Below are positions 26,176 to 59,441 of a DNA stretch of 64,000 bases, piece by piece. Origin of the DNA: an uncultured Isosphaeraceae bacterium. GTDB taxonomy: Bacteria; Planctomycetota; Planctomycetia; Isosphaerales; Isosphaeraceae. The notes under the pieces were generated by a model. The model was not told where the DNA came from. It did not search any database and saw nothing but the letters and a program-made list of their open reading frames with translations. The stretch's first letter is position 1, and each line of letters begins with the position of its first letter. The translations under genes and the position numbers were made by a program. Where the stretch lies: positions 4,047 to 68,046 of the forward strand of contig CAZEAN010000007.1 of the NCBI GenBank assembly GCA_964510225.1, in the 5' to 3' direction.

Positions 26176-26203
26176 TGTTATCGAGATTGCAGAGGACTGC
26201 GGA

Positions 26204-33455: not shown

Positions 33456-33673
33456 TCGCAAGTAACCTCGATGCCAGGTTGATGTTCATCTAGACTTGGC
33501 AGAGGAGCACGTCGGTGGTTCCCGATCTTTTCAGTTGAATGACCGATTGTTCTCCCGTAGACCAGTTGCTTTTTCTGGTATGATTTTGAAGCTGACCCTA
33601 AATCGGCCGATCTTCCTATCCAGACGTCCTTGCTCTACTAGATTTGCGATTGAACTGAGAGTCCGTGCCGAAG

Positions 33674-34450: not shown

Positions 34451-34452
34451 CG

Positions 34453-35505: not shown

Positions 35506-35508
35506 GCC

Positions 35509-37100: not shown

Positions 37101-38413
37101 TCAGTAACATTCCCTGTGGTCGTTGTAATTCGTCGGAGGCGAGTTCCAGACGCTGGAGTCGGACTGGGGTCCTGCTGATCCTGGGATCGCTCGGCGTCAT
37201 TGCGGTGGGTTGCACGCCTGATCTCGAAACGCGATATGGCCATGTCAGCGGTGAGAGTGTCAATGGAACGGGGGTTTTTGCTCGACTCCTCCAAAGTCGG
37301 GGGCATCAGGTCCGGAGTTCATGGCGATTGAACGATGAAGTCGGCAGTTGGGCGGATGTCATCGTCCGATTTGCGACAGCCCCAGGCGTGATCGATGCCG
37401 AAGAGGCTGCTTGGTACCAATTCTGGCTCGAGGGAGAGTCGAACCGCCTCTTGATCTACGTTTGTCGTGACGTCGAACTCGAGCACGAGTACTGGACCGA
37501 AGTCCTCGAGAACATCCCTCGGGATGCCGATCCGGACTTGATCCAGTCAATCGAGCGTAAGCAACGCGAAACGGCGAACTGGGCAGCGTCACTCCCCACG
37601 CCTTCCGATGACCCAGCCGATCGAATGACTTGGTTTGGGACCGAAGGGGGTACGCGAACGAAAACCTGCGCGACACTTGGCGGCCCTTGGGCCTTCGGAG
37701 TTGACCCGACTGCAGCCGCATTACCACGACGACAGAGCTTGAGAGTTAACTTTGGTAACCAAGCGGATTACGTCTTGCTAAGAGGCGATGGAGAACCACT
37801 CGTCCTGAACTGGATCCTAGAAGAGGATGCCGATGACTACACACTCGACGAGAGCGAATATTCAGAGATCTTGATCATCGCGAATGGTGCCTTCCTACTG
37901 AACGCAGGGATGGTCAATCCTGAGCGCCGGCTGATCGCAACGCACCTCTTGGACACGATCAGGGATCCGAGTCGGAAGATTGCGTTTGTGGAAGGGGAGG
38001 CGATCCTCATCAATCTGCCACAAGCACCAGACCTCTGGGAACGAATCCAGAGGCTCCCGATGCTCTCGCTTGTCGAGGCCCATTTCTTGGTGATCGCGAT
38101 CATCGCTGTTCTCGCTCGCGCCGTGACTTTTGGCCGACCAAAACCAGGACCTTCCTCGGCGGCAGATCGCCCCGCTGCTCACGCGTCAGCTCTTGGATAC
38201 TTGCTGAGCCGAACCCGAGAGACCGAGGCCGCTCGGATAATTCTAAGTGGTTATCAACGGTGGCGACGTCCTCCAACCCGCCACGAATTCGATCCAGGCA
38301 CCAAGGATCGCCCAGAAGGGTCGTCACAAAAGACAACGCTCAAAGATCGGGGCCCCGATCTTACTTACTTGGACGATCGTGCGGAGGATCGTTCAGAACG
38401 AACGGACACTTGA
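37097..38413 (+). CDS. DUF4350-like protein
   Basis: N-terminal TM/lipoprotein-like 'VLLILGSLGVIAVGC', then 'NGTGVFARLLQSRGHQV' and a late TM 'HFLVIAIIAVLA'. An ATGA overlap joins it to the upstream gene. The domain call is from memory of the family layout. Confidence 0.55.
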   Translation: MISNIPCGRCNSSEASSRRWSRTGVLLILGSLGVIAVGCTPDLETRYGHVSGESVNGTGVFARLLQSRGHQVRSSWRLNDEVGSWADVIVRFATAPGVIDAEEAAWYQFWLEGESNRLLIYVCRDVELEHEYWTEVLENIPRDADPDLIQSIERKQRETANWAASLPTPSDDPADRMTWFGTEGGTRTKTCATLGGPWAFGVDPTAAALPRRQSLRVNFGNQADYVLLRGDGEPLVLNWILEEDADDYTLDESEYSEILIIANGAFLLNAGMVNPERRLIATHLLDTIRDPSRKIAFVEGEAILINLPQAPDLWERIQRLPMLSLVEAHFLVIAIIAVLARAVTFGRPKPGPSSAADRPAAHASALGYLLSRTRETEAARIILSGYQRWRRPPTRHEFDPGTKDRPEGSSQKTTLKDRGPDLTYLDDRAEDRSERTDT

Positions 38414-40923: not shown

Positions 40924-42966
40924 ATGCGACTTACCCTCCGAACCCTGCTTGCCTGGATCGATGACGCACTCCCACCTGAGGAAGCTCGCCAAATCGGTAA
41001 GCAAGTCGACGAGTCTCCGTACGCGAACCAATTGGTCGAACGGATCCGACGCGTGACCCGGCGTCGTCGACTTACCATCCCCCCCAGCAGCGGACCTGAT
41101 GCTGTTGATCCCAACCTCGTTGCCGGCTACCTCGACAACGAAATTGACTCGGACCGGGTCGCTGAGCTTGAGAACCGATGCCTTGAGTCGGACGTTCATC
41201 TTGCCGAGGTCGCCAGTTGCCATGAGATCCTCAGCTTGATTAAGAACAAGGCCAAGGTTCTGCCTGAAACACGGATCCGGATGTATGGACTCGTCAAAGG
41301 TCAAGAGGCGAGGCAGATCGCTTCTGAAGCAGCGTTACCGACTGACGGTGAATTGTCGGGCGCGGTTCCGCCGTGGTACTTCGAGGAAACGGCGGGTCAA
41401 TCGATTCTCACGACGATTGGACCTGTGATTTTGGCCGCGCTTTTGATCATACTTGCATTTGGGATTGGCTGGGCAAACTTCCAGTCCGCCGCCCGGTCCT
41501 TAGGCGTTTCCGATGACTCTGAGTTGACCCAGCGAGCGGTCCTTGACCGCGAGGTCCCGATCGTCGAAGACCTTGGGGACCAGCAAGACGAGCAAGCTCC
41601 GGCTCTGAGCCCGGAGAACGAAGATCCTTCTGTTGAGAGTCCGACAGAATCACCTGAAGTCTCGGTAGTCGCAACTCCACCGAGTTCATCGGGGGATGAT
41701 CTGACCACTGATCGCCTGGAATCGACAGCAAACTCGGGGATGGTCGGTGAGACGTCAGTGGATCGTCCAACCGTTCCTGAGAGACCAGCGGTCGAGTTAC
41801 GCCGGTCCGAAATTCCCGAGGGATCTCTTGGGCTCGTCAACCGACTCACCGGGTTCCTCCTGATCACCAGAGACGAAGGTAACCGTTGGACCCCTCTTAA
41901 GGCTGGGGATACGCTTGGGTCTGGCGATCGAGTGGTCAATCTCGCTCCGTTCCGCGCCACCCTGCAACTCGGAGACGCATTGTTGACCTTGATTTCTCAA
42001 GTGGAGCTTCGAGTCAAAGAGCCCGAAGGCGATCAGACCTGCCAGATTGAGTTAATCGAAGGGACAATTGTTCTTGAGCCGACTGATCTCGCCGCTTCAG
42101 ACTCAACTGCAGCCGTAATGATCGGGGACCGAGTGATCGCGTTGCAGCCGGTCGACGATCAGCGAGTGGGACTCTCTCGGTTCGGCAACCGTCCTCCGGG
42201 GGATGCCAGCGGTGTTCCTCTCCTCTCGATCACGACCTCGACGGGTGAGCTTCAAGTCACTATTGACGACGAGACCGCAGACCCATTACTGGGGCCAATC
42301 GTTGCCCTCTATGATCAAGAGGCTGCCTTGATCGCTCTTGACCAAGGGATGGTTCCGCCCTGGCTCGATCAGACTGAAGCCTCTCCTGATGAGCTCCAAG
42401 CCGGCGACCGCTTTGCGACACTTCTCGAAGCCTATCCGGGGAACCTTACCTTCGGACTCTTAGAAGGGCTCAGAGACGAACGCGTGGAGGTACAATCTCT
42501 TTCGGTGGCGGCACTCGGAGCGATCGGTGAATTTGAACAAGTTCTCCCACTTTTAAGTAGCGAGAACACACCAGCACTCCGGGCGGCCGCAATCGGAGTC
42601 ATTTCTCGAGAGCTCGCGACGAGCGAAGTCGATGCCGCCGCTATCGTCGCCATGATCGAGGAGCTATTCTCGGGAGAGCCCGAAACCGCCGCGGATCTGA
42701 TCCGTCTTCTTGTTGGCTATGAAATCGAGCAACTCGAACGCAGCACAGCCGACCAGCGCCAGACCTTGTTTGCGAAACTCGTTGAAGACCTTGGTTCCGA
42801 GAATCCAAGCGTCCGCCAGCTCGCTATTCAGACGATCATGGGACTGACTGGACGGGGTTCGCTCGGCTATGATCCCGATGATCCCGAAGGAAGTGGCGGG
42901 CTTGAAGCATGGCAACAGTTGCTCAATCAAGGAGATCTCAACTTTCCAGGCCAACCGAGGCCTTAG
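40924..42966 (+). CDS. Single-pass membrane protein: anti-sigma-like N-terminus, FecR-like beta domain, C-terminal HEAT repeats
   Basis: N-terminal 'LLAWIDDALPPEEA' and 'VAGYLDNEIDSDRVAELENRCLESDVHLAEVASC', TM 'IGPVILAALLIILAFGIGW', FecR-like 'WTPLKAGDTLGSGDRVVNLAPFRATLQLGD', and HEAT-like 'VQSLSVAALGAIGE...ALRAAAIGVI'. Confidence 0.5.
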   Translation: MRLTLRTLLAWIDDALPPEEARQIGKQVDESPYANQLVERIRRVTRRRRLTIPPSSGPDAVDPNLVAGYLDNEIDSDRVAELENRCLESDVHLAEVASCHEILSLIKNKAKVLPETRIRMYGLVKGQEARQIASEAALPTDGELSGAVPPWYFEETAGQSILTTIGPVILAALLIILAFGIGWANFQSAARSLGVSDDSELTQRAVLDREVPIVEDLGDQQDEQAPALSPENEDPSVESPTESPEVSVVATPPSSSGDDLTTDRLESTANSGMVGETSVDRPTVPERPAVELRRSEIPEGSLGLVNRLTGFLLITRDEGNRWTPLKAGDTLGSGDRVVNLAPFRATLQLGDALLTLISQVELRVKEPEGDQTCQIELIEGTIVLEPTDLAASDSTAAVMIGDRVIALQPVDDQRVGLSRFGNRPPGDASGVPLLSITTSTGELQVTIDDETADPLLGPIVALYDQEAALIALDQGMVPPWLDQTEASPDELQAGDRFATLLEAYPGNLTFGLLEGLRDERVEVQSLSVAALGAIGEFEQVLPLLSSENTPALRAAAIGVISRELATSEVDAAAIVAMIEELFSGEPETAADLIRLLVGYEIEQLERSTADQRQTLFAKLVEDLGSENPSVRQLAIQTIMGLTGRGSLGYDPDDPEGSGGLEAWQQLLNQGDLNFPGQPRP

Positions 42967-43014: not shown

Positions 43015-43857
43015 TTGGTTGGTCAGCCTGGCAACAGAAGGAGATCGGTCTTGGCCGAAAACTATCAACACTATCGGACCATTGCCGAGTCGGTTGCCCG
43101 GAATGCCGGTGCTGTCCTCCGAGATCGCTTTGGTAGGGTCGACGTCCGGGAAAAGGGGCCAGGTGATCTCGTCACGGAAGCGGATCTTGCCAGCCAGCGG
43201 ATGATCGCGAAGGCCATCGCCGACGCCTTCCCGGAACACACACTACTCGCTGAGGAAGAAGGAGTTCGACCCGACCCGGACCGCCCTTGGCGTTGGATCG
43301 TCGATCCCCTCGATGGGACCGTCAACTTTGCGCATCGATTCCCATTCTGGACCGTCTCTATTGCGTTGGAACATCAGGGTGAACTGGTCGTCGGCGTCAT
43401 TCACGACCCCATCGCAGGAAGCCTCTATTCGACTTCGAAAGGGGGCGGCACGACCTTGGACGGATCGCCGATCCGTGTCTCAGAACCCTTAAAACTGGGA
43501 GAGTCTCTGATCACGGCAGCGTTCCCGACTCGCTTTGGTGACGACGCACCTACCCAGCTTGCGTTGATGGGAAGGTTCTCCACAAACACTCACTCGGTCC
43601 GAAGGACGGGTTCGACGGCCTACAACCTTGCGATTCTCGCTGCCGGTGGTTGCGAGGTCTGCTTCGGGACACATGTGCATCCATGGGATGTCGCTGCTGG
43701 TGTCCTCCTTGTCCGAGAAGCGGGTGGACGCGTCACCCAGCTCAATGGAGATCCCTACAATCTCTACGGAAAAGAGATTCTTGCGACGAACGGGTTGGTG
43801 CACGACGAGGCCGTTCGGGCGGTTGCGGAAGCAATGGCCTCACTCGCTCGATCGTGA
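43015..43857 (+). CDS. Inositol monophosphatase family protein
   Basis: 'LVTEADLASQ', 'LAEEEG', 'WIVDPLDGTVNFAH' and 'HPWDVAAGVLLVREAGG'. The start codon is uncertain (TTG at 43015 or downstream). Confidence 0.9.
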   Translation: MVGQPGNRRRSVLAENYQHYRTIAESVARNAGAVLRDRFGRVDVREKGPGDLVTEADLASQRMIAKAIADAFPEHTLLAEEEGVRPDPDRPWRWIVDPLDGTVNFAHRFPFWTVSIALEHQGELVVGVIHDPIAGSLYSTSKGGGTTLDGSPIRVSEPLKLGESLITAAFPTRFGDDAPTQLALMGRFSTNTHSVRRTGSTAYNLAILAAGGCEVCFGTHVHPWDVAAGVLLVREAGGRVTQLNGDPYNLYGKEILATNGLVHDEAVRAVAEAMASLARS

Positions 43858-43993: not shown

Positions 43994-46900
43994 GTGCGCG
44001 TCCGTTCCTCGGCTCCGAATTCTAGATCCGCGCTCACGAAGGTCATCCCTCCCCTGATCGGAGGTTTCCTCTTCGGCGTGATTAACAATGGAACAATTGC
44101 GGCTCAGTCAGCGTCCCCCGATGACTCTCAAACCGTCCGTGGTCAGGATCTCGAAAACGAAGAGCTTTTCTCCCTCGCTCCGCAAGAACTCAATCCGTTA
44201 CCAGGCGAGTCGTTCGATTCCTTTTTGGGACGCCGCGCTGAATCGCTCAATCAAGGTGTCGAGCGATCAGAAAGCTGGATCACTTCGATCGCACTTCAAG
44301 GCTCTGTCGTCGAAAAGAAGGATGGAACCGAGGAGGGAGTATGTCGGCTCCGATTTGGACTCCAGACCCGAGGTCGAGGACCCTACCGGATTCAAATCGG
44401 GCTCAATGGTTTGAACCTCCGTGAAGCGACGACCGGTACCGGGCGTCTTGTCGAGTGGCAGAATGATCCCGAGCAGGGTTGGTGGTTGATCCTCGAAGAC
44501 CCCATTAGGACGCCTCAATTTGTCGATGTCGACGTGATCGTTGACGTGGAAGCCTTCGGTGGGGAGCGTCTTCTTGAGTTCAAACTCCCCCCTGCTCCTG
44601 AGACGAAGATTAACCTCAAATTGCCCTACGAAGTGGAGACCGTTTTCATCGGTGAGGACGATCTGAGGCCTGTCCTTAACCTCCCAGACGGATCTCAACT
44701 GGATGCAATCCTCAAGATTGGCGATCCAGTCAGAGTCCGCTGGGAACCTCCGGAGGGGACGACTGAATCTGTTGCCCCATTGCTGCTCGCCGAGGGACAC
44801 CGAACCCTCGCGGTGGGCCCCGGGAGTCTGACAACCCGATCGACCTGGGAGGTCCGAGCCTTCCGTGGGGTTGTTTCGGAACTGATCGTCCGTCTTGATC
44901 CGGCTACGGAGTTCCTCGAAACCAAAGTCAACGGGATCTTAGTCGAACCAATACCGGTCTCGGAGACGGGAACTTCGACCAGTCTTGACCGCCTGGAACT
45001 CTTGCGGATTCCACTTGCAGACCCACTCGATGTTGGCGAATCGACCACGATCCGTCTCGAAAGCCAACGGCCTCTGAATTTGGAGAGTGCCGGTCCCCAA
45101 CCGATTCTCGATCGCGGCCATTGGTTCGAAGGGGTCACTATCCAAGAGGGGACGCTTTCGATCTCAGCTCCCGAACGCATCAGTGTTCGACTGCAACCAC
45201 CCCCTGGTCTGAACCCCATCAGCCCGCGAGCACTTCCCGAGGAGGCGAGATCGCTTGATCTGAATGAGGCGTCGATTGTTCATGCCTTCCGATTCGACAG
45301 TCCTGTCGATGCGCTCATGTTCCAAGTCGCCCGGAAGCCCTCGATGATTGTGATCGATCGTCTGCAAACACAGATCGAGTTCGATTTCGAGTCCGGCCTT
45401 GCTCAAGTTCTCTGCCAATTCACGGCGGAATCAGAACAAGGACCGATCGAGGAGCTTCGCGTCCTGGTTCCTGATGGTCTGCGACTTGACCGTGTTGAAC
45501 CTACCGAGGGCTTTCCTGGTTGGAGTCTTGAACAAGACGAGAGCACGGGCGAGACTACACTCGTCCTCCCGATCCCTCCTGAACCCGACGCTGAAGCCAG
45601 GAAATCGATTGTAGTCGACCTTAGTGGCCAAGTGGGTTTACCCGTCGCTGGAAACCAATTCAGGGATCAAGAACTCACAATACCATTGTTTCAACCAACC
45701 GCTGCTGTGTACCGGAGCGTCACGGTCGTTGCTAGAGCACCTCAAGGGATCACGCTCGGATCGAAGTTGACGACTTCACGAAAAGAATCGTTGTTCGACC
45801 ACGATACGCTTCTCCCAGCATTGCTCGATGACCGACCGTACGAGCTAAAAAGCCGCTTCCGCATTCCTCCCCCTGCAATCTCTATCGTCGCGCGTGCGCA
45901 AGGGAATGTTGTCCATCGGGAGGTCGATCTTCAAGCGAGAGTTGGCTTGGATGGTCTGGGGGTCCAGCAGACGGTCACGCTTCATGTCCTGAACGGCGAA
46001 CTAGCCGAAGCCGTCTTAGAAATCCCTGAAGCGATCGAGCGTCGATGGGAACTTCGGACGCCGGTCGACCGAAATCTTCCGCTGGAACCAGGGGCGTCCG
46101 GGGAGCAACGTCGGCGATTGGTGATCCGACCGATCTCGGCTGGTTCCTCGATAAAGCTCTCCTTCGTCTATCAGATTGAACCACCAGAGCCGTTGGTACC
46201 CGGGAAACCGTTTGAGTTCGAGATTCCCGAAATCGAAGTTCGGACACCTGGACACTCGTCAGCAACCCGGCTGAAAGTTGCTGCACCAGGGACGATTCAA
46301 CTTCAGCCTGAAGGGAACGGCTGGCGACGTCTGGATGGCACCCAGGCCGTTGCTGATCCGAGTGGTGGAGCCCCGGTCCCGCTACAACTCTCAAAGGTCC
46401 TAGCAGCGGGGATTGCCTCAGTTCGGGAACGAACTCCCCGACTGACGGCCGTTGTTTCTCCCCAAGCCGACCTCCCCAGCACCTTGGCATCGCGACTCTA
46501 TCTCAGAACAGAACAGGCGACGAATGGGAGCGTCCGAGTCACCGCCTTTTATCGGATGGAACGTTTCCAAGACGCAATTGGAGTGCGGCTCAACCCAGTC
46601 GCTGTCCTCGATCAGGTTTCATTGGACGGTCGATCACTAGTTTCTGGTGTGGTCAGAGATCCCGAACGTCCTGGAGATTTCTGGGTCCGACCGACGGGCG
46701 GGGCGTCGACCGAGTCGGAAGGTCTCCTCGAACTCCGGTACCGCGTTCCCCGATCGGCGGATTCTGATCGATGGCGTCCTCCACAACTTCTCGACGATGG
46801 CACGGTACTCGATTCGCTCTGGGAGATCCGCCTGCCTAGCAGTCTGGCGATGATTGGAACCCCGATCGGATATTCGGACGAGAATCGTTGGGCTTGGTCG

Positions 46901-47542
46901 GGGTTCGGTCGAGAGCGCCAGCCCTGGAAAACAGAGGAAGAACTTTTGGAGTGGGTCAACGCCCCTCTACAAGGTACCAAAGGCGATGAATCGGGAACCA
47001 ACTCAGTTCGCTTCCGCTTTCATAGCTATTTGTTCGCCACTCCTGGAGAGCCTGATGCGATTAATCCACTGATTGCTCCGTATGCGTTGGTGATCGGTTG
47101 CTGTTCAGGGGGAGTCTTCTTCGCAGGGATGCTTGCATTGTCTTTTCCAGGGCTTCCTCGACGATTGATCGTTGCCGCCTTGGTCTTAACGCTCGGAGGA
47201 CTCTCAGTTCTCGGGCCTGCAACCTCGATCTTGCTTGCAGAATCGTCAGTCATCGGGCTTTGTTTGATCCCGATTGCTGGGCTGATCCGACGCGCCGTGG
47301 ACCGACGGAGACCGATCAGTCAGTTCCCCGATGGAAGTAGCCTTGGCACCTTCGAACCGAATCCCATTTCAGACGAACTCCGGGTACCATCGGCTCCGAC
47401 GCCAGCGGTTGGATCCGACGACTCCACTGCCATCAGATCTCGGCCACCGATTCCACCCTCCCAAGGACCCAACCAAGACGCAATCATTGAGATCAAGGCT
47501 CCCGTTTCTGAACCAAAAGCATCCGAAACCGTGATCAAATAG
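43994..47542 (+). CDS. Giant envelope protein 1 (about 1180 aa): signal peptide, about 1000-aa ectodomain, 3 C-terminal TM helices, Pro/Ser-rich tail. No recognisable domain
   Basis: The track ORF starts at the TTG at 43628 but overlaps the IMPase gene. The GTG at 43994 is preceded by GAGGG 8 nt upstream and gives 'VRVRSS...VIPPLIGGFLFGVINNGTIAAQSA'. The TM cluster lies around 47068-47300. Confidence 0.65.
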   Translation: MRVRSSAPNSRSALTKVIPPLIGGFLFGVINNGTIAAQSASPDDSQTVRGQDLENEELFSLAPQELNPLPGESFDSFLGRRAESLNQGVERSESWITSIALQGSVVEKKDGTEEGVCRLRFGLQTRGRGPYRIQIGLNGLNLREATTGTGRLVEWQNDPEQGWWLILEDPIRTPQFVDVDVIVDVEAFGGERLLEFKLPPAPETKINLKLPYEVETVFIGEDDLRPVLNLPDGSQLDAILKIGDPVRVRWEPPEGTTESVAPLLLAEGHRTLAVGPGSLTTRSTWEVRAFRGVVSELIVRLDPATEFLETKVNGILVEPIPVSETGTSTSLDRLELLRIPLADPLDVGESTTIRLESQRPLNLESAGPQPILDRGHWFEGVTIQEGTLSISAPERISVRLQPPPGLNPISPRALPEEARSLDLNEASIVHAFRFDSPVDALMFQVARKPSMIVIDRLQTQIEFDFESGLAQVLCQFTAESEQGPIEELRVLVPDGLRLDRVEPTEGFPGWSLEQDESTGETTLVLPIPPEPDAEARKSIVVDLSGQVGLPVAGNQFRDQELTIPLFQPTAAVYRSVTVVARAPQGITLGSKLTTSRKESLFDHDTLLPALLDDRPYELKSRFRIPPPAISIVARAQGNVVHREVDLQARVGLDGLGVQQTVTLHVLNGELAEAVLEIPEAIERRWELRTPVDRNLPLEPGASGEQRRRLVIRPISAGSSIKLSFVYQIEPPEPLVPGKPFEFEIPEIEVRTPGHSSATRLKVAAPGTIQLQPEGNGWRRLDGTQAVADPSGGAPVPLQLSKVLAAGIASVRERTPRLTAVVSPQADLPSTLASRLYLRTEQATNGSVRVTAFYRMERFQDAIGVRLNPVAVLDQVSLDGRSLVSGVVRDPERPGDFWVRPTGGASTESEGLLELRYRVPRSADSDRWRPPQLLDDGTVLDSLWEIRLPSSLAMIGTPIGYSDENRWAWSGFGRERQPWKTEEELLEWVNAPLQGTKGDESGTNSVRFRFHSYLFATPGEPDAINPLIAPYALVIGCCSGGVFFAGMLALSFPGLPRRLIVAALVLTLGGLSVLGPATSILLAESSVIGLCLIPIAGLIRRAVDRRRPISQFPDGSSLGTFEPNPISDELRVPSAPTPAVGSDDSTAIRSRPPIPPSQGPNQDAIIEIKAPVSEPKASETVIK

Positions 47543-47598
47543 AGTTGTCCAAGGTGAGCTTCAGGGATCTTATTGGCTTGACGTTATCATTGCGACCG

Positions 47599-50500
47599 AT
47601 GAGAAAACGAACACTTCGGATTCGCCTTCTTTACACCAGTGTTCTCGTGGTCTCGCTCTTCGCCCCAAGAGTCGATGCTCAAGAGCTTGCAAAAGCCGGT
47701 ATTGTTCCAATAGGTGTCTCGGGAGCGACACTCGATCGCTGGATTGCAGAAGGTGCCGATCTAGTGGGGGTGAAGCGAGCGGAACTCGAGCGTTGGCTTG
47801 AGAATCTGGAGAGTAATAGCACCCACCAGAAATCCTCGACAGAGTACAGAAGGCCACTCCGGATCCGACATGAGCTGTACTGGGACGAAGGGGAATTGCT
47901 CGGTAAGTCAGCAGTACAGGTGGCCACCAGTCCAGCAGCAACAACACTTGTCGAAATCGCTCCCTGGACTCCTCCAGTTGAATCTACCCTACCCGAAACG
48001 TGGCAGTTGTTGCATCGTGATATTGACGGTCGGGCATACATCGTTGAAACACCCGGACGCGAGCCTCGAGAACTACAGTCATCGACCGAAGAAATCATGA
48101 TGGTGTGGCGGCTTCGGGCCCGCGATGGATCCCATGGTCGATCCTTCAGACTTGAGCTCCCCGAACTTCCTTCCACGGTAATCCAACTCAATCTTCCCGA
48201 GGGGTTGATACCTGAGCATCTCGTTGGTGGGGAGATTGTTCCTTCACAAGCGGACGAGCAAGGCCGCCAGATCTGGGAATACTACGAGACCGGAGGTACG
48301 GTCACACTCGACCTCCGAGAGGAGACAGATAACAACAGCGTCGGTCTCCCTTGGATCGAAGGGACCATGGAGATTCAGGTCGGTTCCAATCTTCGGTCAC
48401 CGAGCCCGACTGTTTCAGGCAATCCCTTCGCGCTCTGGAGTGCAGCGATCACTGTCGATCCCGATCCCACTGGCGGGTTTCTCCGACGGTTAATGCTCAA
48501 GCTTCCGGACTCGATGATCGTCTCCGATGTAGGACCGAAGTCTGTTGTAAGGGACTACCAGACCCTACCCGCTACCGACGGCATCGGGAACCATCTCGTC
48601 GTTCGGTTCGCCGATCCTCAAACGGGGCCATTTCAGCTGGAACTTGCTGGACTCGCCACAATTCCAAGACCCGAGCGTTGGATAATCCCGTCAATCGAGC
48701 CGGTCGATGCGATCTGGACCCGCGGAACCGTCCTAGTTCGGCTTGGTCCAAGCTGGTCTCTTACGGACTGTCAGACCCAGGGAGGAACCCGGATACCAGC
48801 GGAGACTCTACAGTATTCAAACTCGATTGGACCGAGTCCAGGACAGTCTACCGATCTTGCCTTTGCAGCACATCAGCCCACTCCTGTCGCGATTCTCGGA
48901 CTGCAACAGGCTGCCTCAACTCTCGAAGCCACGGTCCGAGGGACCCTGCTGGTGGGGACCGATCATCAAGACACCGCCTTGGTCGAGATTCTGCTTCTTG
49001 ACCAGTCTAACGAACTCCCTCCAGTCCTGGAGGTCGAGATTGGACCAGAGTGGTGGCCTCAACTTGGTACAGTCAGACTATCGGGAGTTTCGCCCGTTCG
49101 CGCTGACGTCCAATCCGATCCCAACCGGCCTGAACGTTCTCGCCTCAGCGTGACTCTCCCCAGCATCTCATCGACACTCGAATCGCCCGTCCGACTCACC
49201 TTCGAAGCAATCCCACGACAATCGAGTTCGCCGTCTCGAAGAGATGACGCTGTATCGGAGCTTGACGTCATCCAACTTCCGCAAATCCGCCCTTTAAACA
49301 CTCGGATAGTTGACGAAGAGTGGTCGGCTCGATCGCTCGGGAACGTCACGCTTGAGCCAGTCGAAGCGAGTGGCTTGGCTTGGTTAGACCCGAAGAACGC
49401 GTCGGCTTTTGACCTCAGTTCATTTCCTGAGACGAATCGAGGTCTCACGACGAGCCAGGTGTTATCCGGAGCGGAGAAAGCCCCACTACTTTCGTGGCGC
49501 TGGACGAGGGCGGATGCAACCGCTTCGGTGGTCCGACTTCGCGAGCAACAAGTGCCGAGGATTACGATCCAAAAGAAGGTAGTTCTAGCGCCTGGGAAAA
49601 CCAGAGTCGATTGGACACTGACGGTTGATCCATCTGGCAATACCCTGAGAAGGCTTCCGATTCGTCTGACCCCTCCAGGACGCTACAACGATGAGATCGA
49701 GTGGTCATTGATCGAGGATGGCCGCACCATTCCAATCCCCGGGCTCGATTCGGAAGGATTATTGCTGCCGCAGGCGACCGCACAACGGTTCACTCTGCAG
49801 GGTCGGGTCGTGACAGAGTTGCCAGCTGACTTTCAGGTTCCGGCCCTGACGGTTAATGGCTACAGAATGAGTGGAGAAGTTGTCTTCTTGGCCGATGATG
49901 CTACGCGCGCAGAACTAACTATCGATTCCTCGTACCGTCGACGGTTCGTATCTCATCCAAGAAGCGAACCGAACACGGTTGACACTGAACCGAGAAGACT
50001 ACGGATCCTTGAGGCCTTGGTGTTCGAAGGAGAACCTGTTCCCGTCCAGGTCCGATCCGAAGACCTGCGTCCAATCGAGATGTCGGGCGCGATCCTCCAA
50101 GCAGACCTCTTTAGTCTCGCTGCTCCCGAACGGTTTACTGTTCACCGCCTCAGTCTCGACGTTGTTCAAGGAACGCGGGACCATCTCGAGATTCGTTTGC
50201 CAAAATCCAGTGAACTGATTCAAGTCACCAACAACGGGGCTCGGGTTCATCCCGTACTCCAGAATGGCACCTTGCGGATCCCAATACTCGACCTTGCTCC
50301 GAGTGGAGCGGTGCTGGCGAGCGGCTTCGAGTCGCGACCCCGGATCGAGGTGAGCTATCGGACTCTGGCGACACCTCGCTTTCGCTCCATCGGTGCTGAA
50401 CGTCCCACGTTCTCTATCCCATGCCTTTCGTTCTGTTGGCAGCTGGCGACTCCTGATGATTATCGTCTCGTTTCTCCTGGAGAAGGGCTCTCCCCAGCGG

Positions 50501-53500
50501 GCCGATTTCAAGGGGGCCAGGAGTGGTTTTTGCCCTCTTGGAGTGCAAGAACGAGACGGCAACCACTGGGTGATTCCGAAATCGACCGACTCTTTGAACC
50601 GTACCGCCCTTCAGAAGGTACAGAAACTTTAGGCACGTTACTCGCCCGATGGGATGCGGGGAGACTCCCGATTTTGGTCGATTCATCGTCGATCGCCGAA
50701 CTTGGTCTCGGAGCGACGAGCCCAATACCAGACTCCACCAGTCTCGAACCCATCGCTGGATCGACGCTCTTGCGTTCTCTCGGGCTTACACTTGTTCCCT
50801 TTGGACAGTCTCTGCTCCTCACCAAGGTTGCAGATTCAGAATCGCCGCGTTCCGGACTCGGTTTCGGAGCACTCACTAGCAGAGCGTCTCCACTTAACCA
50901 AGCAGTCCTTGACGCGGTCACGCAGGGATCAGATCGATGGAACCAGGTTCTGACAGTTGAGCGTTGGCGATCGACTTGTTCATCAGATCCGACCATTGCG
51001 TATGAGCTTCCCAATAGTTCGTGGCATTTCCAACGATTTGTCGGTTCAGAATGGCCATCGGACGGTGCGTCGGTTCAAGTTCAGAGGCTTTGGCCTTGGT
51101 TCTGTGGTGGCACCGTCTGTGGTGTGCTTCTCCTCCTTGTTGCGGTGAGGAGAAGTCGTAGAGGATTCGGCTGGAGGAACTTTGGACTGACACTGGGGGC
51201 GTTGCTCACTGGTCTCTTCCTGTTGATGGGGAGTGATCCTCGCGCTGTTGTCTTCGGACTTGGCCCCGTTGCCGGTACCTCATTGGGCATGGCACTCCAA
51301 TTCCTCCTGGTCTTCCGCAGTCGCTTTGCTGCACCAAGAGTGCGGGGGGGGCGTCGTGGGTGGCTCATGCAAGCTGGAGTCCGTAGCGCCCTCGTTTTAC
51401 TATCGATTGGTACGATAGGTGGGGCTGCCTTCTCGGTTGCACCTGAAGTTTCCTCGACGATCCTGGCGTTCTACCCGTTGGACTCAACTGAGACTCAGTT
51501 TCCTCCGGGAACGCTCCTCATTCGGCGCGAGGTTTGGGAGAGGCTCCGAGCGACCAGAACCGGAGCGGTCTTAACGCGTGAAGATCCTCCCCGGAATCTG
51601 ACTAAAGTGGGTGCAGTTCGTGCTGTCCACTCCCTCTCTTGGGAAAATGCGGGGACGCTTCTCCTTGAAAGTCAGTTGAGCCTGATTCGGACCAGCGATG
51701 ATGCGGTTGACGAACCGGTCTGGTGGTCGATTCCAATTGATCGTCCGAGTCGTCTTGAAGTTATGATCGATGGCCAGATCGTGATGTCAAAGATCACAAC
51801 CGACGGGGATTGGGCTCGGATCCCTGTACCTGGAGGCGAACACGAACGGGCTGTCCAGATCCGGCAGTGGGTCGACCCACTTCGGAGTGGGCCAGACGCC
51901 TTGATTTGGGCAATCCCAATCAATCCTGTCGCCAACTCGACGGTCGCCCTCCAATCTGGTGGCGCAGAGTTGCTGGGTTATGCTGAGCCACGTGTGATGA
52001 CCCAGTTCGGCGAATCGGTACTGCTCAACGGCAAGACGGGTCCCGTGAGCCCAGGGGCAGTATCTCGACTCGAAATCCAAGTACCGCTCTCGGCAGATCC
52101 CGCCACGGAGAAAACGCTCCCGACTTCCGACTCTTTGAGCCTAGAGGGGACACTCACTTGGAGCCCGCTTCCGGCCGCCGATCGATTGGAGGCAAACCTC
52201 CAGTATTCGGGGCCTAGTCCTCTAGCGCAGATTCGATTCGCGATCGATCCCGAGACCTCCATTCGGGCAAGTGCGTTGCCGGACAACACCACAGCGCAGA
52301 TCAACCAATTTGATCAAGGTGAAGCAACGAGCATCGAAGTCCGGTTCGAGCCACCCATACCCCGCGGTGGTCAATTCGAGCTGAGTCTCTGGCGACCACG
52401 TAATACACCTAAGACCTCCAGTTCGAACCCTCGGACTCCACCACGCCTTGAGCCACTTAACATTCCCGAATATACAGGAACGCTCAAGCTATCTATCCCC
52501 AACTCGTTAGAGGGAACACTCGAGAGTGACCAAGGGGTGATTCGACTGCAGCGGCTTGAAGACAAAGCGCATCTTGATCGGATGCCGGGGTGCTACGACA
52601 CAAAGCCGATTGCTTTCGAGGAAGTCGTTGATTTTAGATTGAGCCTTCGACCGTTATCGGACCGACTTCAGGTGACTCCTGAACTTGAGATGACCTTGGA
52701 GCCGGGACGCTGGATCTGGGAATTGTCTGCCAGAGTGGACAATCTTGAAGGCCGACCAATCCGTGAACTTCTGGTCGATCTCCCTGAAGGGCTTACGCTC
52801 CTTGAAGCCAATGGACGCAATAGCGCTGGTGATTCCAGTTTGACCTTTCAATCCATAAACAGAGGAGGACAACGGTTGACCCTCCGCTTTGATGGACCGG
52901 AATCAGGAACACAATGGGTCGAGCTGAGCGGTTGGTTACCGATCGAGACTGATCCGATGATTGCAGGTCAGTCAACTTGGTCGAGTTACCTCCCCTGGCC
53001 AGGCTGGACTCGGACCACAGAAGTTTCAGGGACCGTCCGAATAACAGCGCCTCCTACAGCCGAGATTGAATATGAATCCCGCGACGGGACTCAAGCAACA
53101 CTTCGGGCTGATCCGACGAGTGCGGAACTCCGTGAGTTAGGGTTGATTCCAGTTGAGCAACCAGGGCGTCTTGGGATTACTCTTACCCCGGAAGTCCGTG
53201 TCAAGATCTGGAGCCGCCTAGAGATCGATGGCACCGTGGCAAACTGGGAAGCAATCGTGCGCTATGATGTCTCAAGTGGGCCACTGGAACGGATCAAACT
53301 CGCGCTTGACCCCGACTGGGCCTCGCGGGCCCAATTTGAGATCAACGGCCTAGAGTCGGTATTAAGCCATCAAACCGATGATCGTGTAGAACTTCGCCCT
53401 GATCGACCGATCTGGGGAGGCGCAGAACTCAGGATTCGCGCCTCGCGTCCCCTTGCGTCTAGCCAACGATCGTTCGAGTTTCCGACCCTTGTTCCTTACG

Positions 53501-54591
53501 GTCCTGGACGCCTGGAGGGCTTGATCGTCTCCCTGGTTGACACCACTGGAGAGCTTGAAATCCCCGAATCAACTGGTTTAGAGCCTGCCACCGATGAATC
53601 AATAGGCGAGCTTGATGAAGTGATCTCCTTCGAGCAAGATGCAAACGAGAATCGATGGGTTTATCGTGTTGTGGCACGTCGATCTGATGGTTGGTCCCTG
53701 ATCGTACCCTCCAATGACTCGGTACAGCAGACTGAGACCGACTCTACAGTGATTGGACTCGGAGACTTGAGATGCCGGATCGGAACGGAAGGGACTCTTG
53801 TCTGCCATGGTCGGTTTGAGTTGGATTTGGATCATTCGCCGTTCTTGCGTCTTTACCCTCCTGAAAGCGCTTCCCCCCTTGCGGCATCGGTGGATGGTCG
53901 GGAAGTCACTCCACAAATTGACAGGAAGGGCAACTGGGTGATTCCTCTCGGCCCGGGTCCGGTCCGACTAGTCGACCTCCTTTGGAACGATCCCGGAGTT
54001 CCTGAGACCCCAGAGTCGACAACATCGAGGAGGGAGTTTCAGCTTCCTCGACCAATTGGCTCTGAAACATCGCTCTTACTCACGGTCCGCACTCCCAATC
54101 AAGACCATCTTGTGATCACTGGCGGCGATGCGAAGCGGGGGCTTGCGACGAACCTTGGTGAACAACGTGCGGAACGCCTCGCTGGATTAATCTTGAGCCG
54201 ATTAACAGAAGACGATCGCTCCGAGGCGACCTTGGAACAGATCCGAGAGGATGTCCGCAGGCTTGCGATGAGAATCCGGACAGCAGACCGGTCAGCGCGT
54301 GGTGCGATGCTCCTCGGGTACGTTGACGGAGGTCGAAGTTCCCTCATTAGATCGGCAATACAACACCTAGAAGAACATCGGATCAAGGTAATCCAATCAC
54401 TCCGAGCAGCCGGCCTTGATTCTCTTTCCGACGAACTGTCACGGGACCGTGATCTTAGCGCCGTGGTCATTCCTGAACCCATACTTGACCCGTTTCCGGT
54501 CCAAGACCTCGGTATCCCCCATTACTTCCAAGCAACACTCTCTCCTGAAGCTCCTCTTGCCATCATCTGGGAGCCTGAACAGGTCGATTAA
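47599..54591 (+). CDS. Giant envelope protein 2 (about 2330 aa): signal peptide, about 1140-aa domain, central cluster of about 4 TM helices, second about 1050-aa domain. No recognisable domain
   Basis: The ATG at 47599 gives a classic signal peptide 'MRKRTLRIRLLYTSVLVVSLFAPRVDAQ' (the track ORF starts at the TTG at 47545). The TM cluster lies around 51085-51445. The reading frame is uninterrupted for 7 kb. Confidence 0.7.
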   Translation: MRKRTLRIRLLYTSVLVVSLFAPRVDAQELAKAGIVPIGVSGATLDRWIAEGADLVGVKRAELERWLENLESNSTHQKSSTEYRRPLRIRHELYWDEGELLGKSAVQVATSPAATTLVEIAPWTPPVESTLPETWQLLHRDIDGRAYIVETPGREPRELQSSTEEIMMVWRLRARDGSHGRSFRLELPELPSTVIQLNLPEGLIPEHLVGGEIVPSQADEQGRQIWEYYETGGTVTLDLREETDNNSVGLPWIEGTMEIQVGSNLRSPSPTVSGNPFALWSAAITVDPDPTGGFLRRLMLKLPDSMIVSDVGPKSVVRDYQTLPATDGIGNHLVVRFADPQTGPFQLELAGLATIPRPERWIIPSIEPVDAIWTRGTVLVRLGPSWSLTDCQTQGGTRIPAETLQYSNSIGPSPGQSTDLAFAAHQPTPVAILGLQQAASTLEATVRGTLLVGTDHQDTALVEILLLDQSNELPPVLEVEIGPEWWPQLGTVRLSGVSPVRADVQSDPNRPERSRLSVTLPSISSTLESPVRLTFEAIPRQSSSPSRRDDAVSELDVIQLPQIRPLNTRIVDEEWSARSLGNVTLEPVEASGLAWLDPKNASAFDLSSFPETNRGLTTSQVLSGAEKAPLLSWRWTRADATASVVRLREQQVPRITIQKKVVLAPGKTRVDWTLTVDPSGNTLRRLPIRLTPPGRYNDEIEWSLIEDGRTIPIPGLDSEGLLLPQATAQRFTLQGRVVTELPADFQVPALTVNGYRMSGEVVFLADDATRAELTIDSSYRRRFVSHPRSEPNTVDTEPRRLRILEALVFEGEPVPVQVRSEDLRPIEMSGAILQADLFSLAAPERFTVHRLSLDVVQGTRDHLEIRLPKSSELIQVTNNGARVHPVLQNGTLRIPILDLAPSGAVLASGFESRPRIEVSYRTLATPRFRSIGAERPTFSIPCLSFCWQLATPDDYRLVSPGEGLSPAGRFQGGQEWFLPSWSARTRRQPLGDSEIDRLFEPYRPSEGTETLGTLLARWDAGRLPILVDSSSIAELGLGATSPIPDSTSLEPIAGSTLLRSLGLTLVPFGQSLLLTKVADSESPRSGLGFGALTSRASPLNQAVLDAVTQGSDRWNQVLTVERWRSTCSSDPTIAYELPNSSWHFQRFVGSEWPSDGASVQVQRLWPWFCGGTVCGVLLLLVAVRRSRRGFGWRNFGLTLGALLTGLFLLMGSDPRAVVFGLGPVAGTSLGMALQFLLVFRSRFAAPRVRGGRRGWLMQAGVRSALVLLSIGTIGGAAFSVAPEVSSTILAFYPLDSTETQFPPGTLLIRREVWERLRATRTGAVLTREDPPRNLTKVGAVRAVHSLSWENAGTLLLESQLSLIRTSDDAVDEPVWWSIPIDRPSRLEVMIDGQIVMSKITTDGDWARIPVPGGEHERAVQIRQWVDPLRSGPDALIWAIPINPVANSTVALQSGGAELLGYAEPRVMTQFGESVLLNGKTGPVSPGAVSRLEIQVPLSADPATEKTLPTSDSLSLEGTLTWSPLPAADRLEANLQYSGPSPLAQIRFAIDPETSIRASALPDNTTAQINQFDQGEATSIEVRFEPPIPRGGQFELSLWRPRNTPKTSSSNPRTPPRLEPLNIPEYTGTLKLSIPNSLEGTLESDQGVIRLQRLEDKAHLDRMPGCYDTKPIAFEEVVDFRLSLRPLSDRLQVTPELEMTLEPGRWIWELSARVDNLEGRPIRELLVDLPEGLTLLEANGRNSAGDSSLTFQSINRGGQRLTLRFDGPESGTQWVELSGWLPIETDPMIAGQSTWSSYLPWPGWTRTTEVSGTVRITAPPTAEIEYESRDGTQATLRADPTSAELRELGLIPVEQPGRLGITLTPEVRVKIWSRLEIDGTVANWEAIVRYDVSSGPLERIKLALDPDWASRAQFEINGLESVLSHQTDDRVELRPDRPIWGGAELRIRASRPLASSQRSFEFPTLVPYGPGRLEGLIVSLVDTTGELEIPESTGLEPATDESIGELDEVISFEQDANENRWVYRVVARRSDGWSLIVPSNDSVQQTETDSTVIGLGDLRCRIGTEGTLVCHGRFELDLDHSPFLRLYPPESASPLAASVDGREVTPQIDRKGNWVIPLGPGPVRLVDLLWNDPGVPETPESTTSRREFQLPRPIGSETSLLLTVRTPNQDHLVITGGDAKRGLATNLGEQRAERLAGLILSRLTEDDRSEATLEQIREDVRRLAMRIRTADRSARGAMLLGYVDGGRSSLIRSAIQHLEEHRIKVIQSLRAAGLDSLSDELSRDRDLSAVVIPEPILDPFPVQDLGIPHYFQATLSPEAPLAIIWEPEQVD

Positions 54592-56329
54592 GTCCAACAG
54601 CAGTTTGATCGGTTTGATAGATCGCGATACTAACGTCGTCTGTGTAGCAAGCAGGTTCAAGCCGATCGAGTAGTTGGAAGTAGCCAGCCGGTGACCAAGG
54701 TCCGTGTTGTAGGGAGGCGGAGACGGGGACGTAGGTGGTGTCTGCCTCGATTTCGGGGGGGATGTTGTCGGGGGGGCCGTGGGCATCGATGACGTAACAT
54801 CGCCCCACCACACCATAGTAGCTTGGATCTGTATTGCCGAAGGTGTAGAAGGTGAGGTCGCGGTATTTCGGTGACTCCTGTTGTAGTCGTGCGAGCGATC
54901 GGGCACCTTGGCCCCAATCGAGGTTGGAGTCGGCTAAGATCAACCGTCCACCTTTGGTTCCACCAGCGAGTTGATTAAAGAAGCTCAAGTAGTGGGGATG
55001 TGTGGTTGCGACGGCAACGGTCATCATTGTGAGACCAAGAATCGTGATCCAGGTGGTGATACGAGACTTCGAAACGAGTCCCGAGATCCAGAGAATTGCA
55101 AAAGGGAAGGTCGGGAGGAGATAGCGGACGCCGTAGTTTCTCGAGGAGGCAAGCGCGGTGATTAAGATGAGGAATCCGATCGTCGTGACACAGATGATCC
55201 CTGGGATTGTAGGCTGTCGCCACTCACGTTGTCGGATGGCGTTCACGGTTCGAGTACCGAAGAACAAGAGCAAACCAAGCGGCACTTTGACGGCGAGTGC
55301 CACCAGGTAGTAGTACCACCAGCCTTGCATCCTCCGCTCTCCGAAGAGATAGCTGAGGCCCCCACTCCGCTGCATCCGGAGTTGGTTCCCGAACGCGACC
55401 CAGTCTTGTGGTAACGGTGTTTCGATGAGCGTGATCATGAGCTGATCCCAAGGCGCACCGAATCGATTGCTGAGAGTCGGGTGGACCTCGCCGACTCTCG
55501 GTGAAAAGGTGATCAATGCGCCACCTGTGATCACGAGGTCGGCTCCAAGCATCAAGACGCCATACCCGATCATCCCGAGGCCAATCCGAAGCAAGGCGCC
55601 GATCCATTGACTCAGGGATCGCTCTCTGCCATCGCGGTAGATCGACGTAACTAGCCAGGCGAGTCCGAGGACTATCGGCAGAATGACCGTGGTGAACTTG
55701 CACGAGAAAGTCACACCCGCAATCAAGCCCGAACCCAGAAACCAGCGTCTCCGTCCCGTCTCCAGAAATCGGCTGAAAAGGATCGTCGCGGCAAGCCAAC
55801 CAAGGACCAGTGGTAATTCCATCGTGATCAAGCCCGCATGAGCTAGTAGATTGGGGCTCAATACGAAGAGTGTTGCCGCCACGAACCCCGCTTTGGGGCC
55901 ATAAAGCGATCGGCCCCAGAAGGTCGTGAGGACCAAGGTGCAAATCCAAATCCAGAGTGCACCGATCCGGAGAATCGGAAGCAAGGTCGCTTGCTCCTCG
56001 ATCGGCTGGTCAATCAATCCTCCAAAGCCAGAGCGATCCAAGAGCCAGAGTGTCGCCGCCTGCTGGAGTTTCCAGAAGGTCAAGGGTGACCCCATCCGGC
56101 TGATCGTCTCTTCCGAACCCGTTCGCCACCAAGTAGTCGCAACCTCAAGATAGGTGACTTCATCATAGGTAGCCGAACTCGCCCACGCGGCATGGATCAG
56201 GAGTCCGAGTCCGAGCATGCCGACCAAGAACGCGCCTACATCCCAGCTTGTGAGGCCGCCCTCTACAACAAGGCGTGGTTTCGTCGATAGGACTTTAGCT
56301 GGGTTCTCACTTCGACTGATCTCAGACAT
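54563..56329 (-). CDS. GT-C fold glycosyltransferase (GT39/ArnT/PMT-like)
   Basis: First-loop 'SATYDEVTYLEVA' (DE motif), at least 10 TM helices, 'LYGPKAGF' and 'SPNLLAHAG'. The start may be the ATG at 56329 or the upstream start at 56401. Confidence 0.7.
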   Translation of the reverse strand: MSEISRSENPAKVLSTKPRLVVEGGLTSWDVGAFLVGMLGLGLLIHAAWASSATYDEVTYLEVATTWWRTGSEETISRMGSPLTFWKLQQAATLWLLDRSGFGGLIDQPIEEQATLLPILRIGALWIWICTLVLTTFWGRSLYGPKAGFVAATLFVLSPNLLAHAGLITMELPLVLGWLAATILFSRFLETGRRRWFLGSGLIAGVTFSCKFTTVILPIVLGLAWLVTSIYRDGRERSLSQWIGALLRIGLGMIGYGVLMLGADLVITGGALITFSPRVGEVHPTLSNRFGAPWDQLMITLIETPLPQDWVAFGNQLRMQRSGGLSYLFGERRMQGWWYYYLVALAVKVPLGLLLFFGTRTVNAIRQREWRQPTIPGIICVTTIGFLILITALASSRNYGVRYLLPTFPFAILWISGLVSKSRITTWITILGLTMMTVAVATTHPHYLSFFNQLAGGTKGGRLILADSNLDWGQGARSLARLQQESPKYRDLTFYTFGNTDPSYYGVVGRCYVIDAHGPPDNIPPEIEADTTYVPVSASLQHGPWSPAGYFQLLDRLEPACYTDDVSIAIYQTDQTAVGLNRPVQAPR

Positions 56330-56748
56330 CGGTCGATTCCATGACCCTGAGGCGGTGCAACGAGATCTAAACAAGAGACTCAATAAGCAGTTATTTAGCA
56401 AACTCTGAACGACGAGTGCAGGCCAACCTGGGGTCGGCCTTCGATTCCCAAGGTGTAAATTGTTAAACTCATGTCGAACGCAATTGCGATGGCTGAGGAA
56501 TTAAGATTGCCGCACTCTGACGAGTCGCTTACATTGTGTGAACGAGTCGTGATGACTCTGACGCGCGAACGAACAGACAAACCCGCCCGTAGTTAGCTAA
56601 GTTCGAGCAGCAAATTAGTTCAGCACCCGGAATTCGTTGAACTTGCTTCCATCCTTGGATCAAGATGCTGCTCGGCTCTCAATCGCCCTCCCGACTCGCC
56701 CTCCGAACGTCGTGCGAACACTGATAGGGATTGGCAGGTGACGTGATC

Positions 56749-59271: not shown

Positions 59272-59441
59272 CGACCTTCTCCCGGAAAGATGTGTTTCTG
59301 GGTGGTGCGTAACGATGAGACCGATAGACGAGTCATCTGCACTTGCCAAAGATTCAATCACTTCAGTTGGCAGCAAACAACGTGGTTAATGAAGGAAGCG
59401 GCCTCTTTTCACACGGCGCTCATCCGAGAGGGAATCGATTC

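Follow-up and report, generated by a model that had tools for sequence, protein, structure and literature searches.

A 64,000-nucleotide stretch of DNA from an uncultured Isosphaeraceae bacterium (contig CAZEAN010000007.1; the whole stretch is hereafter the window) encodes two adjacent giant proteins, P1 and P2, that together carry three homologous copies of one large module. P1 (positions 43994–47542, + strand; 1182 amino acids, GTG start) holds one family module, and P2 (47599–54591, + strand; 2330 amino acids, ATG start) holds two fused modules. At the level of sequence, the family lies outside every described family in the libraries and literature that we searched. Our preferred reading, which we hold with somewhat less than even confidence, is that P1 and P2 form one planctomycete-specific complex anchored in the cytoplasmic membrane, whose three periplasmic arms would provide scaffolding, spacing or a platform for binding in cooperation with a GT-C glycosyltransferase and a HEAT-repeat protein encoded nearby.

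Both genes are intact. An earlier reading made from the letters and open reading frames (ORFs) of this DNA (the sequence-only reading) described two adjacent same-strand ORFs of about 1180 and 2330 residues, and both the ORFs, which lie 56 nucleotides apart, and the NCBI proteins agree: the ORF translation of P1 is identical to NCBI protein P0001, with the same start, and P2 is identical to P0003, both proteins having been called on an NCBI contig of 88 kb. Neither contains a frameshift, and their homologues are alike in length (1093–1204 residues for P1, 2313–2428 for P2). A scan of promoters and terminators returned counts that match shuffled expectation.

Judged by profile comparison, P1 and P2 are true paralogues, ancient copies of one building plan. 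Pairwise alignment does not detect the relationship: BLASTP of P1 against P2 is not significant (best E = 0.068, P1 residues 386–498 against P2 residues 1645–1752), while profile-profile comparison of family alignments with hhalign reaches E = 2.2e-24, so the paralogy proposed by eye in the sequence-only reading stands at the level of profiles. With alignments of 5 + 5 sequences, P1 matches the whole of P2 at E = 3.7e-17 over 718 colinear columns, and it matches the N-terminal and C-terminal halves of P2 separately at E = 7.5e-18 and 4.7e-18, respectively; the two halves match each other at E = 2.3e-8. Enlarging the alignments to 14 + 14 sequences, which align over 768–800 columns, gives E = 2.2e-24 for P1 against the N-half (768 columns), 4.1e-20 for P1 against the C-half (800 columns) and 2.7e-13 for N-half against C-half (789 columns), all above controls made by reversal, column shuffling or shuffling of 10-column blocks (E = 0.058–0.94). 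Hidden Markov models (HMMs) of the P1 family also match P2 proteins directly (E = 1e-14 to 3e-22). At residue level, P1 118–964 corresponds to P2 103–968 (13.9% identity), P1 69–956 to P2 1302–2174 (15.1%) and P2 56–968 to P2 1306–2182 (14.5%), and the best BLASTP match, in the C-half of P2, falls in the same register as the profile alignment of P1 with that half. Both pairs of colinear landmarks that had been matched by eye are in register in the profile-profile alignment, GERLLEFKLPPAPETKINLKLP with HGRSFRLELPELPSTVIQLNLP and LWEIRLPSSLAMIGTPIGYSDEN with FCWQLATPDDYRLVSPGEGLSPAG. The relationship is not one to one, as had first been thought. P1 matches both halves of P2 and the halves match each other; P2 is therefore a fusion of two P1-like modules, and the locus therefore encodes three homologous arms. 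The second domain of about 1050 residues that topology had placed outside the membrane in P2 is thus present, and is moreover the third copy of the module.

The P1 module consists of a repeat arm, a conserved juxtamembrane domain, a transmembrane (TM) cluster and a cytoplasmic tail. Its N-terminus (residues 1–40; 43994–44113, +), delimited by hydropathy, combines a basic N-region with a hydrophobic helix (residues 11–30 in the AlphaFold2 model); it lacks a clean AxA cleavage site and may be either a signal peptide or an uncleaved anchor. The arm (44288–46798, +) is built of about five tandem beta-sandwich repeats of 165–190 residues (residues 99–263, 264–448, 449–636, 637–825 and 826 to about 935). 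This repeat structure emerges when a 77-sequence P1 profile is compared with itself by hhalign, which gives off-diagonal matches at E = 1.2e-17, 5.6e-17 and 1.6e-6, with offsets of about 165–190, 360 and 545 residues at E = 1e-17, 2e-6 and 8e-4, respectively. A LEFKLPPAPETKINLKLP motif lies within the arm at residues 194–211. The AlphaFold2 model, built on the same 77 sequences, has a mean predicted local distance difference test score (pLDDT) of 79.8, with 589 residues at or above 90; it is all-beta from residue 93 to 1029, mostly with pLDDT above 90 along the arm, followed by three confident TM helices and a disordered tail.

Conservation in P1 peaks in a repeat block (residues 426–450), in the juxtamembrane domain and in TM helices 1 and 3. 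The juxtamembrane domain (residues 936–1029; 46799–47080, +), recognised by near-invariant columns, information content and beta structure of high pLDDT, is rich in Trp and ranks with the best-conserved parts of the family (W943, G955, P957, W960, D962, N964, W966, R975 and W987). The TM cluster (47081–47308, +), supported by hydropathy, the AlphaFold2 model and conservation, comprises helices at residues 1030–1050, 1056–1072 and 1075–1105, with Arg-rich cytoplasmic loops; small or polar residues are conserved in helix 1 (C-S-G) and in helix 3 (Q-S-S..G). The cytoplasmic tail (47309–47539, +) is disordered, with low pLDDT for residues 1108–1182, and carries a near-invariant motif, GSDDSTAIRSRP (residues 1140–1151; 47411–47446), in which S1144, T1145, R1148 and R1150 are kept in at least 90% of the 77 sequences.

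P2 repeats this plan twice, with additions of its own. Signal peptides had been claimed for both proteins, and that of P2 is classical as read from the sequence (residues 1–27, 47599–47679, +; MRKRTLRIRLLYTSVLVVSLFAPRVDA, ending in …APRVDA before QE), whereas P1 has the hydrophobic helix but not the clean cleavage site. The repeat arm of the first module (residues 103–968; 47905–50502, +), homologous by hhalign to P1 118–964, is followed by a P2-specific insert of about 190 residues that sits before the TM cluster (residues 975–1160; 50521–51078, +), is delimited by homologue alignments and contains the conserved motifs RWDAG..P.VVD, GL..VP..G.LLITT and GSD..DRFQS..RWR. The insert is predicted to be mixed alpha/beta, with a poorly predicted structure; a profile of 12 inserts found nothing better in the PDB than an unrelated protein at E = 0.78, and Pfam matched none of the 12. 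An identity with the STN/secretin-N0 domain (PF07660) was considered and rejected, as no STN match appeared in either search. TM helices 1–3 follow (residues 1165–1239; 51091–51315, +), identified by hydropathy and arranged as in the P1 cluster. The predicted fourth TM helix is also borne out by hydropathy and sequence (residues 1263–1281; 51385–51441, +); it follows a basic loop, RSRFAAPRVRGGRRGW, and stands exactly where the signal sequence of the second module would be. From module homology we infer that it is the retained signal anchor of that module, left by gene fusion. The arm of the second module (residues 1302–2174; 51502–54120, +) is homologous by hhalign to both P1 69–956 and P2 56–968, and the remaining C-terminal region (residues 2175–2330; 54121–54588, +) is probably helical, judged by eye only. 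An AlphaFold2 model of the N-half of P2, made from five sequences, is weak (mean pLDDT 54.8) and all-beta. Together with the P1 model, it supports the beta-rich character that had been read from the sequence.

The predicted topology places the beta-rich domains of about 1000 residues outside the cytoplasmic membrane. P1 (residues 1030–1105) and P2 (1165–1239) have a common TM architecture of three helices with Arg-rich cytoplasmic loops, and P2 obeys the positive-inside rule as had been reasoned, with its Arg-rich loops on the predicted cytoplasmic side. Multi-helix anchors of this kind argue for a location in the cytoplasmic membrane with periplasmic arms over one at the cell surface. It is accordingly very improbable that P1 and P2 are surface adhesins or S-layer-like cell-wall proteins outside the outer membrane: they are large, repetitive and built of beta-sandwiches, and streptococcal adhesins appear among their weaker fold matches (below), but the three-helix C-terminal anchors, positive-inside loops and cytoplasmic tail fit the cytoplasmic membrane, Pfam and NCBIfam reveal no secretion-system or sorting signals, and length and architecture are strictly conserved, unlike those of fast-evolving adhesins. 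Another possibility, which we consider improbable, is that the 7–10 TM helices of P1 and P2 form a pore to which the arms add a periplasmic conduit. TM helices 1 and 3 of P1 keep Ser, Gln and Gly residues and rank with the best-conserved blocks of the protein, and P2 homologues carry about seven TM helices, as a transporter or channel might; conserved small residues are, however, equally typical of helix packing, Pfam, NCBIfam and PDB profiles show no similarity to transporter families, the neighbourhoods examined share no conserved ATPase or other partner that could supply energy, and the P2 of the window does without one TM cluster.

No known family was recovered for either protein, in agreement with the claim that their domains were unrecognisable and could not be assigned. 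Pfam (E ≤ 0.1) and NCBIfam gave no match in P1 or P2, the anti-phage defence models of PADLOC gave none for P1, P2 or the neighbouring proteins HEAT680 and PMT774 (below), sequence searches of the PDB with P1- and P2-family profiles gave none, and Pfam was equally silent on 41 diverse members of the P1 family. Full-text literature searches found no description of the family. On the points where the sequence-only reading could have failed, we thus find a significant profile alignment, no known family and unbroken reading frames. The features by which we define the new family, namely about five sandwich repeats plus a TM cluster per module and a gene pair running from P1 to P2, are all found. 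Because neither the family nor its gene cluster is in the searched libraries or papers, we rate it as new at the level of family and system; the building block is a familiar sandwich fold.

Fold comparison points to generic rather than specific relatives. Foldseek searches of the PDB with the two models returned the same kinds of structure: legs of integrin alpha chains, ribophorin I/OST1, the N-terminal domain of M1 peptidases and LTA4 hydrolase, PIG-T and streptococcal adhesins. Integrin alpha legs have the best E value (3e-10), with a global TM-score of about 0.1 and 8–11% identity. Matches to ribophorin I/OST1 (6s7o_E and 6c26_1; E = 2e-9 to 4e-6, probability 1.0) have target-normalised TM-scores of only 0.24–0.33 and root-mean-square deviations of 14–24 Å. 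The integrin legs match as well as ribophorin I, so the fold signal looks generic. Matches to the streptococcal antigen I/II adhesins 3qe5 and 4tsh are weaker, and alpha-2-macroglobulin (4u4j) is a weak match for one model (probability 0.11, TM-score 0.07). We read all of these, as far as predicted models allow, as chains of large beta-sandwiches without a specific relationship. Sequence homology to ribophorin I was also tried and rejected: a profile of human RPN1 and yeast Ost1 sequences from the PDB gave E = 0.09–0.22 against P1 and the two halves of P2, with reversed controls at 0.49–0.85, and Pfam Ribophorin_I (PF04597) matched neither P1 nor P2 nor any of the 41 family members. The profile matches resemble those of the reversed controls; membership of the ribophorin family is therefore unsupported at the level of sequence.

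Comparison with these known systems nonetheless brings out both likenesses and differences. Ribophorin I/OST1 likewise places tandem large beta-sandwiches outside the membrane ahead of a membrane anchor, and OST1 works beside a GT-C enzyme much as P1 and P2 have a linked GT-C gene, but OST1 has two sandwiches and one TM helix, whereas a P1/P2 module has about five sandwiches and three TM helices. The integrin alpha leg (thigh, calf-1 and calf-2) is a stalk of consecutive sandwiches with a membrane anchor and a short cytoplasmic tail, which in integrin alpha carries a conserved motif. Integrins are, however, eukaryotic and have a single TM helix in place of the three-helix cluster, Pfam finds no beta-propeller or FG-GAP repeats in P1 or P2, and the P1 model contains sandwich repeats and no propeller; most likely, the resemblance is generic or arose by convergence. 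Bacterial alpha-2-macroglobulins, BatD and antigen I/II adhesins are also long multi-sandwich extracytoplasmic proteins, but these are anchored by a lipobox, a single TM helix or a sortase signal rather than by a three-helix cluster. Pfam A2M/MG, BatD and adhesin domains have no match in P1, P2 or 41 relatives, and no BatA/BatB-type VWA gene is among the genes with Pfam results that were examined in the window or listed for ten homologous loci (L001–L005 and L031–L035). We know of none of these proteins that occurs as a pair of a one-module and a two-module gene.

The family is large, and its members keep their length and gene order in Isosphaerales and other planctomycete assemblies. When 1.84 billion representatives, clustered at 50% identity, were searched exhaustively with P1 by phmmer, 721 clusters matched at E ≤ 1e-3; the count is 306 at E ≤ 1e-10 and 101 at E ≤ 1e-30, and nearly all full-length members have 1100–1200 residues. 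A word-index search had found four P2 homologues (2313–2428 residues, 24–29% identity) and, even with a profile query, one P1 homologue; on the homologue contigs, a gene for about 1100–1200 residues lies directly upstream of a same-strand gene for about 2300–2400. A scan of GTDB species genomes, built on three Isosphaerales-like P2 sequences with patterns that would not match the window's own P2, recovered 25 loci, all from Isosphaerales, Isosphaeraceae or other Planctomycetota, and including isolates whose genomes are complete or nearly so (Singulisphaera acidiphila DSM 18658, Singulisphaera sp. Ch08 and GP187, and Tundrisphaera lichenicola). All named relatives are Planctomycetota, and the gene content of the window, which includes the DUF1559/N-methyl, sulfatase and FG-GAP/ASPIC genes noted below, looks planctomycetal. 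Because the scan favours Isosphaerales-like sequences, the family's taxonomic spread is probably broader than these loci show.

P2 immediately follows P1 in the window, in L001–L005, on the contig of protein P0002, in 19/25 GTDB loci and in L031–L034. This adjacency persists at 24–29% identity, and a distant subfamily also keeps the pair, with a downstream partner that is recognisable only by profile-profile comparison (E = 7e-21). Among homologous loci the P1 stop and P2 start commonly overlap by 4–8 nucleotides, often by 4, which suggests translational coupling. Local HMM searches of all ORFs in the GTDB loci further revealed a recurrent order: a PMT_2-like GT-C gene, a gene for an anti-sigma-like HEAT membrane protein, in some loci an inositol-monophosphatase-family gene, then P1 and P2. 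In metagenome assemblies labelled MFD (L013–L015 and L018–L030), P1, P2 and their neighbours are broken into short ORFs, whereas they are intact in isolates and several other assemblies; the fragmentation looks like assembly frameshifts rather than pseudogenes. That P1 and P2 are spurious or decaying ORFs without function is a possibility we regard as practically negligible. Only their lack of annotation speaks for it, whereas the frames are intact, length is conserved across hundreds of homologous clusters, gene order and invariant columns of Trp, Gly and Pro are kept at about 25% identity, and fragmented copies are confined to the MFD assemblies, where neighbouring genes are fragmented too.

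Genes for membrane glycosyltransferases recur beside the pair. PMT774 (38490–40814, +) is, by synteny and its at least eight TM helices, a divergent PMT_2-like GT-C membrane glycosyltransferase whose Pfam PMT_2 match (E = 6.9e-5) falls under the curated cut-off. A second PMT_2-family GT-C gene (54563–56401, −; Pfam E = 2e-11) is convergent with P2 and overlaps its stop by 29 nucleotides; in L004 a PMT774 homologue lies downstream of P2, comparable to this second copy. One possibility, which we think unlikely, is that P1 and P2 are accessory subunits of a periplasmic glycosylation machine, in which the arms play the part for the GT-C enzyme that OST1 plays for STT3, holding substrates or positioning the enzyme. 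PMT_2-like GT-C enzymes use polyprenol-linked sugars outside the cytoplasmic membrane, the pair is accompanied by such a gene in the window (in two copies), in L004 and in at least 10 other loci, and OST1/ribophorin I is consistently among the top Foldseek matches for both models. Set against this are the profile comparison with RPN1 and Ost1, which at E ≥ 0.09 is no better than reversed controls, the failure of Pfam Ribophorin_I on all 41 members, the equally good match to integrin legs, several loci, L001, L006 and L026 among them, that have no GT-C gene within 10 kb, and the sub-threshold Pfam match of PMT774 itself. A bolder version, that P1, P2, the GT-C enzyme and the HEAT protein make up a planctomycete-specific periplasmic glycosylation or envelope-assembly complex in which ribophorin-I-like arms scaffold the enzyme, so that a bacterium would have its own version, inherited or convergent, of the accessory architecture known from the eukaryotic oligosaccharyltransferase, we consider quite improbable.

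HEAT680 (40924–42966, +) has a zf-HC2-like N-terminus (Pfam E = 0.049), a TM helix at residues 161–179 and a HEAT domain of about 500 residues that is predicted to be periplasmic, and in many loci its gene immediately precedes P1 or the inositol-monophosphatase-family gene. No sigma-factor gene adjoins it, and the nearest extracytoplasmic function (ECF)-type sigma gene found is at 8284–8892. These features invite the idea of a trans-envelope sensor, in which the arms would detect an envelope or extracellular cue and signal through the S-T-x-I-R-x-R motif of the P1 tail together with HEAT680. The architecture of HEAT680, its position near P1 and the near-invariance of the tail motif in 77 sequences are consistent with this idea. 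The zf-HC2 match is very weak, however, no ECF sigma gene was seen adjoining the cluster in the window, P2 is without a comparable tail, and Pfam and NCBIfam find no kinase, cyclase or other output domain in P1 or P2, so that we consider a sensor rather unlikely. The inositol-monophosphatase-family gene (43015–43857, +; Pfam E = 5e-64) is present in some loci and absent from others, and its protein scores under all NCBIfam equivalog cut-offs.

In the scaffold reading that we prefer, each module would leave the cytoplasm by way of an N-terminal signal sequence; in the second module of P2, TM helix 4 would do this work as a signal anchor. It would then fold into an elongated periplasmic arm of about five tandem sandwich domains of 165–190 residues, which might span on the order of 20 nm as a rough estimate from typical sandwich-domain dimensions, and would end in a juxtamembrane region (Trp-rich and strongly conserved in P1) and a three-helix cluster in the membrane; in the window's P2, the cluster of the second module would have been lost. 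We infer that P1 and P2 associate physically and that their arms lie in the periplasm rather than at the cell surface, where they would serve as a structural scaffold, spacer or binding platform. This role is the most likely one because the proteins have no sequence match in Pfam, NCBIfam or the PDB and no match to an enzyme-like fold. The S-T-x-I-R-x-R motif of the P1 tail would provide a cytoplasmic docking or regulatory site, and the complex would probably work alongside the GT-C glycosyltransferase and the anti-sigma-like HEAT protein to assemble or monitor the envelope, which would link it to glycosylation.

Several observations weigh against this reading. The scaffold role is partly a default, drawn from the absence of catalytic signatures. 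Similar TM clusters had been described in the two proteins, and they are similar in arrangement, but when only the TM parts are compared P1 matches P2 at E = 0.0037 against 0.023 for the reversed control; homology is not above control, and the likeness therefore holds as architecture only. Modelling of P2 covers the N-half only and is weak, as given above. The terminal two or three TM helices present in 13/13 aligned P2 homologues are not in the window's P2, and a search of all frames downstream found no remnant of the lost tail; the window's P2 is without a terminal TM cluster, so exact three-fold symmetry fails here. Adjacency of the two genes is not obligatory, since 6/25 GTDB loci have P2 without P1 within 10 kb upstream and the P1 of L035 has no adjoining P2. 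Finally, synteny kept within one phylum may be a legacy of common descent and not a sign of common function.

Planctomycetes have long been discussed for their eukaryote-like cell biology, and their envelope is unusual: the periplasm is enlarged and invaginated, crateriform pits are present, and the cells divide without FtsZ; to our knowledge, most of its protein parts have yet to be named. The locus defines a large conserved family with a building plan (three arms, multi-helix anchors and an invariant cytoplasmic motif) and a gene partnership, and P1 and P2 are concrete candidates for a periplasm-spanning structure or an envelope-glycosylation scaffold. A large share of planctomycete genes lack a known function, as stressed in a 2025 review (PMC12673574). 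Another conserved hypothetical protein in a planctomycete is unsurprising in itself; what sets P1 and P2 apart as a testable candidate is their design of one plus two modules, the large family and the GT-C linkage. The family also occurs in relatives that are in culture and fully sequenced, among them Singulisphaera acidiphila DSM 18658 and Tundrisphaera lichenicola. If the proteins are only passive and structural, the family definition is still useful, with modest general interest.

The surroundings of the cluster hold further genes of note. Directly upstream of the GT-C, HEAT, P1 and P2 genes, a run on the + strand (33665–38413) encodes RDD-family, SpoIIM-like, unassigned 262-residue, DUF4129 and unassigned 438-residue proteins; the RDD/SpoIIM/DUF4129 run is not seen upstream in L033. 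Beyond the second GT-C gene, the + strand (56731–62318) encodes unusually long system-II cytochrome c biogenesis proteins, ResB-like (846 residues) and CcsB-like (991 residues), whose recognised domains span only part of each. Near the P2 homologue of L001 stand two adjoining PycTM-domain genes (25739–26892 of that locus, −), which are probably unrelated to P1 and P2; PycTM is a transmembrane effector of Pycsar-type defence. Elsewhere in the window, a 1220-residue protein (13619–17281, −) combines an N-terminal TIR domain, a CHAT protease-like domain and C-terminal TPR repeats, an architecture typical of conflict or defence signalling proteins, and the window also encodes a DUF1559/N-methyl protein, sulfatases and FG-GAP/ASPIC proteins.

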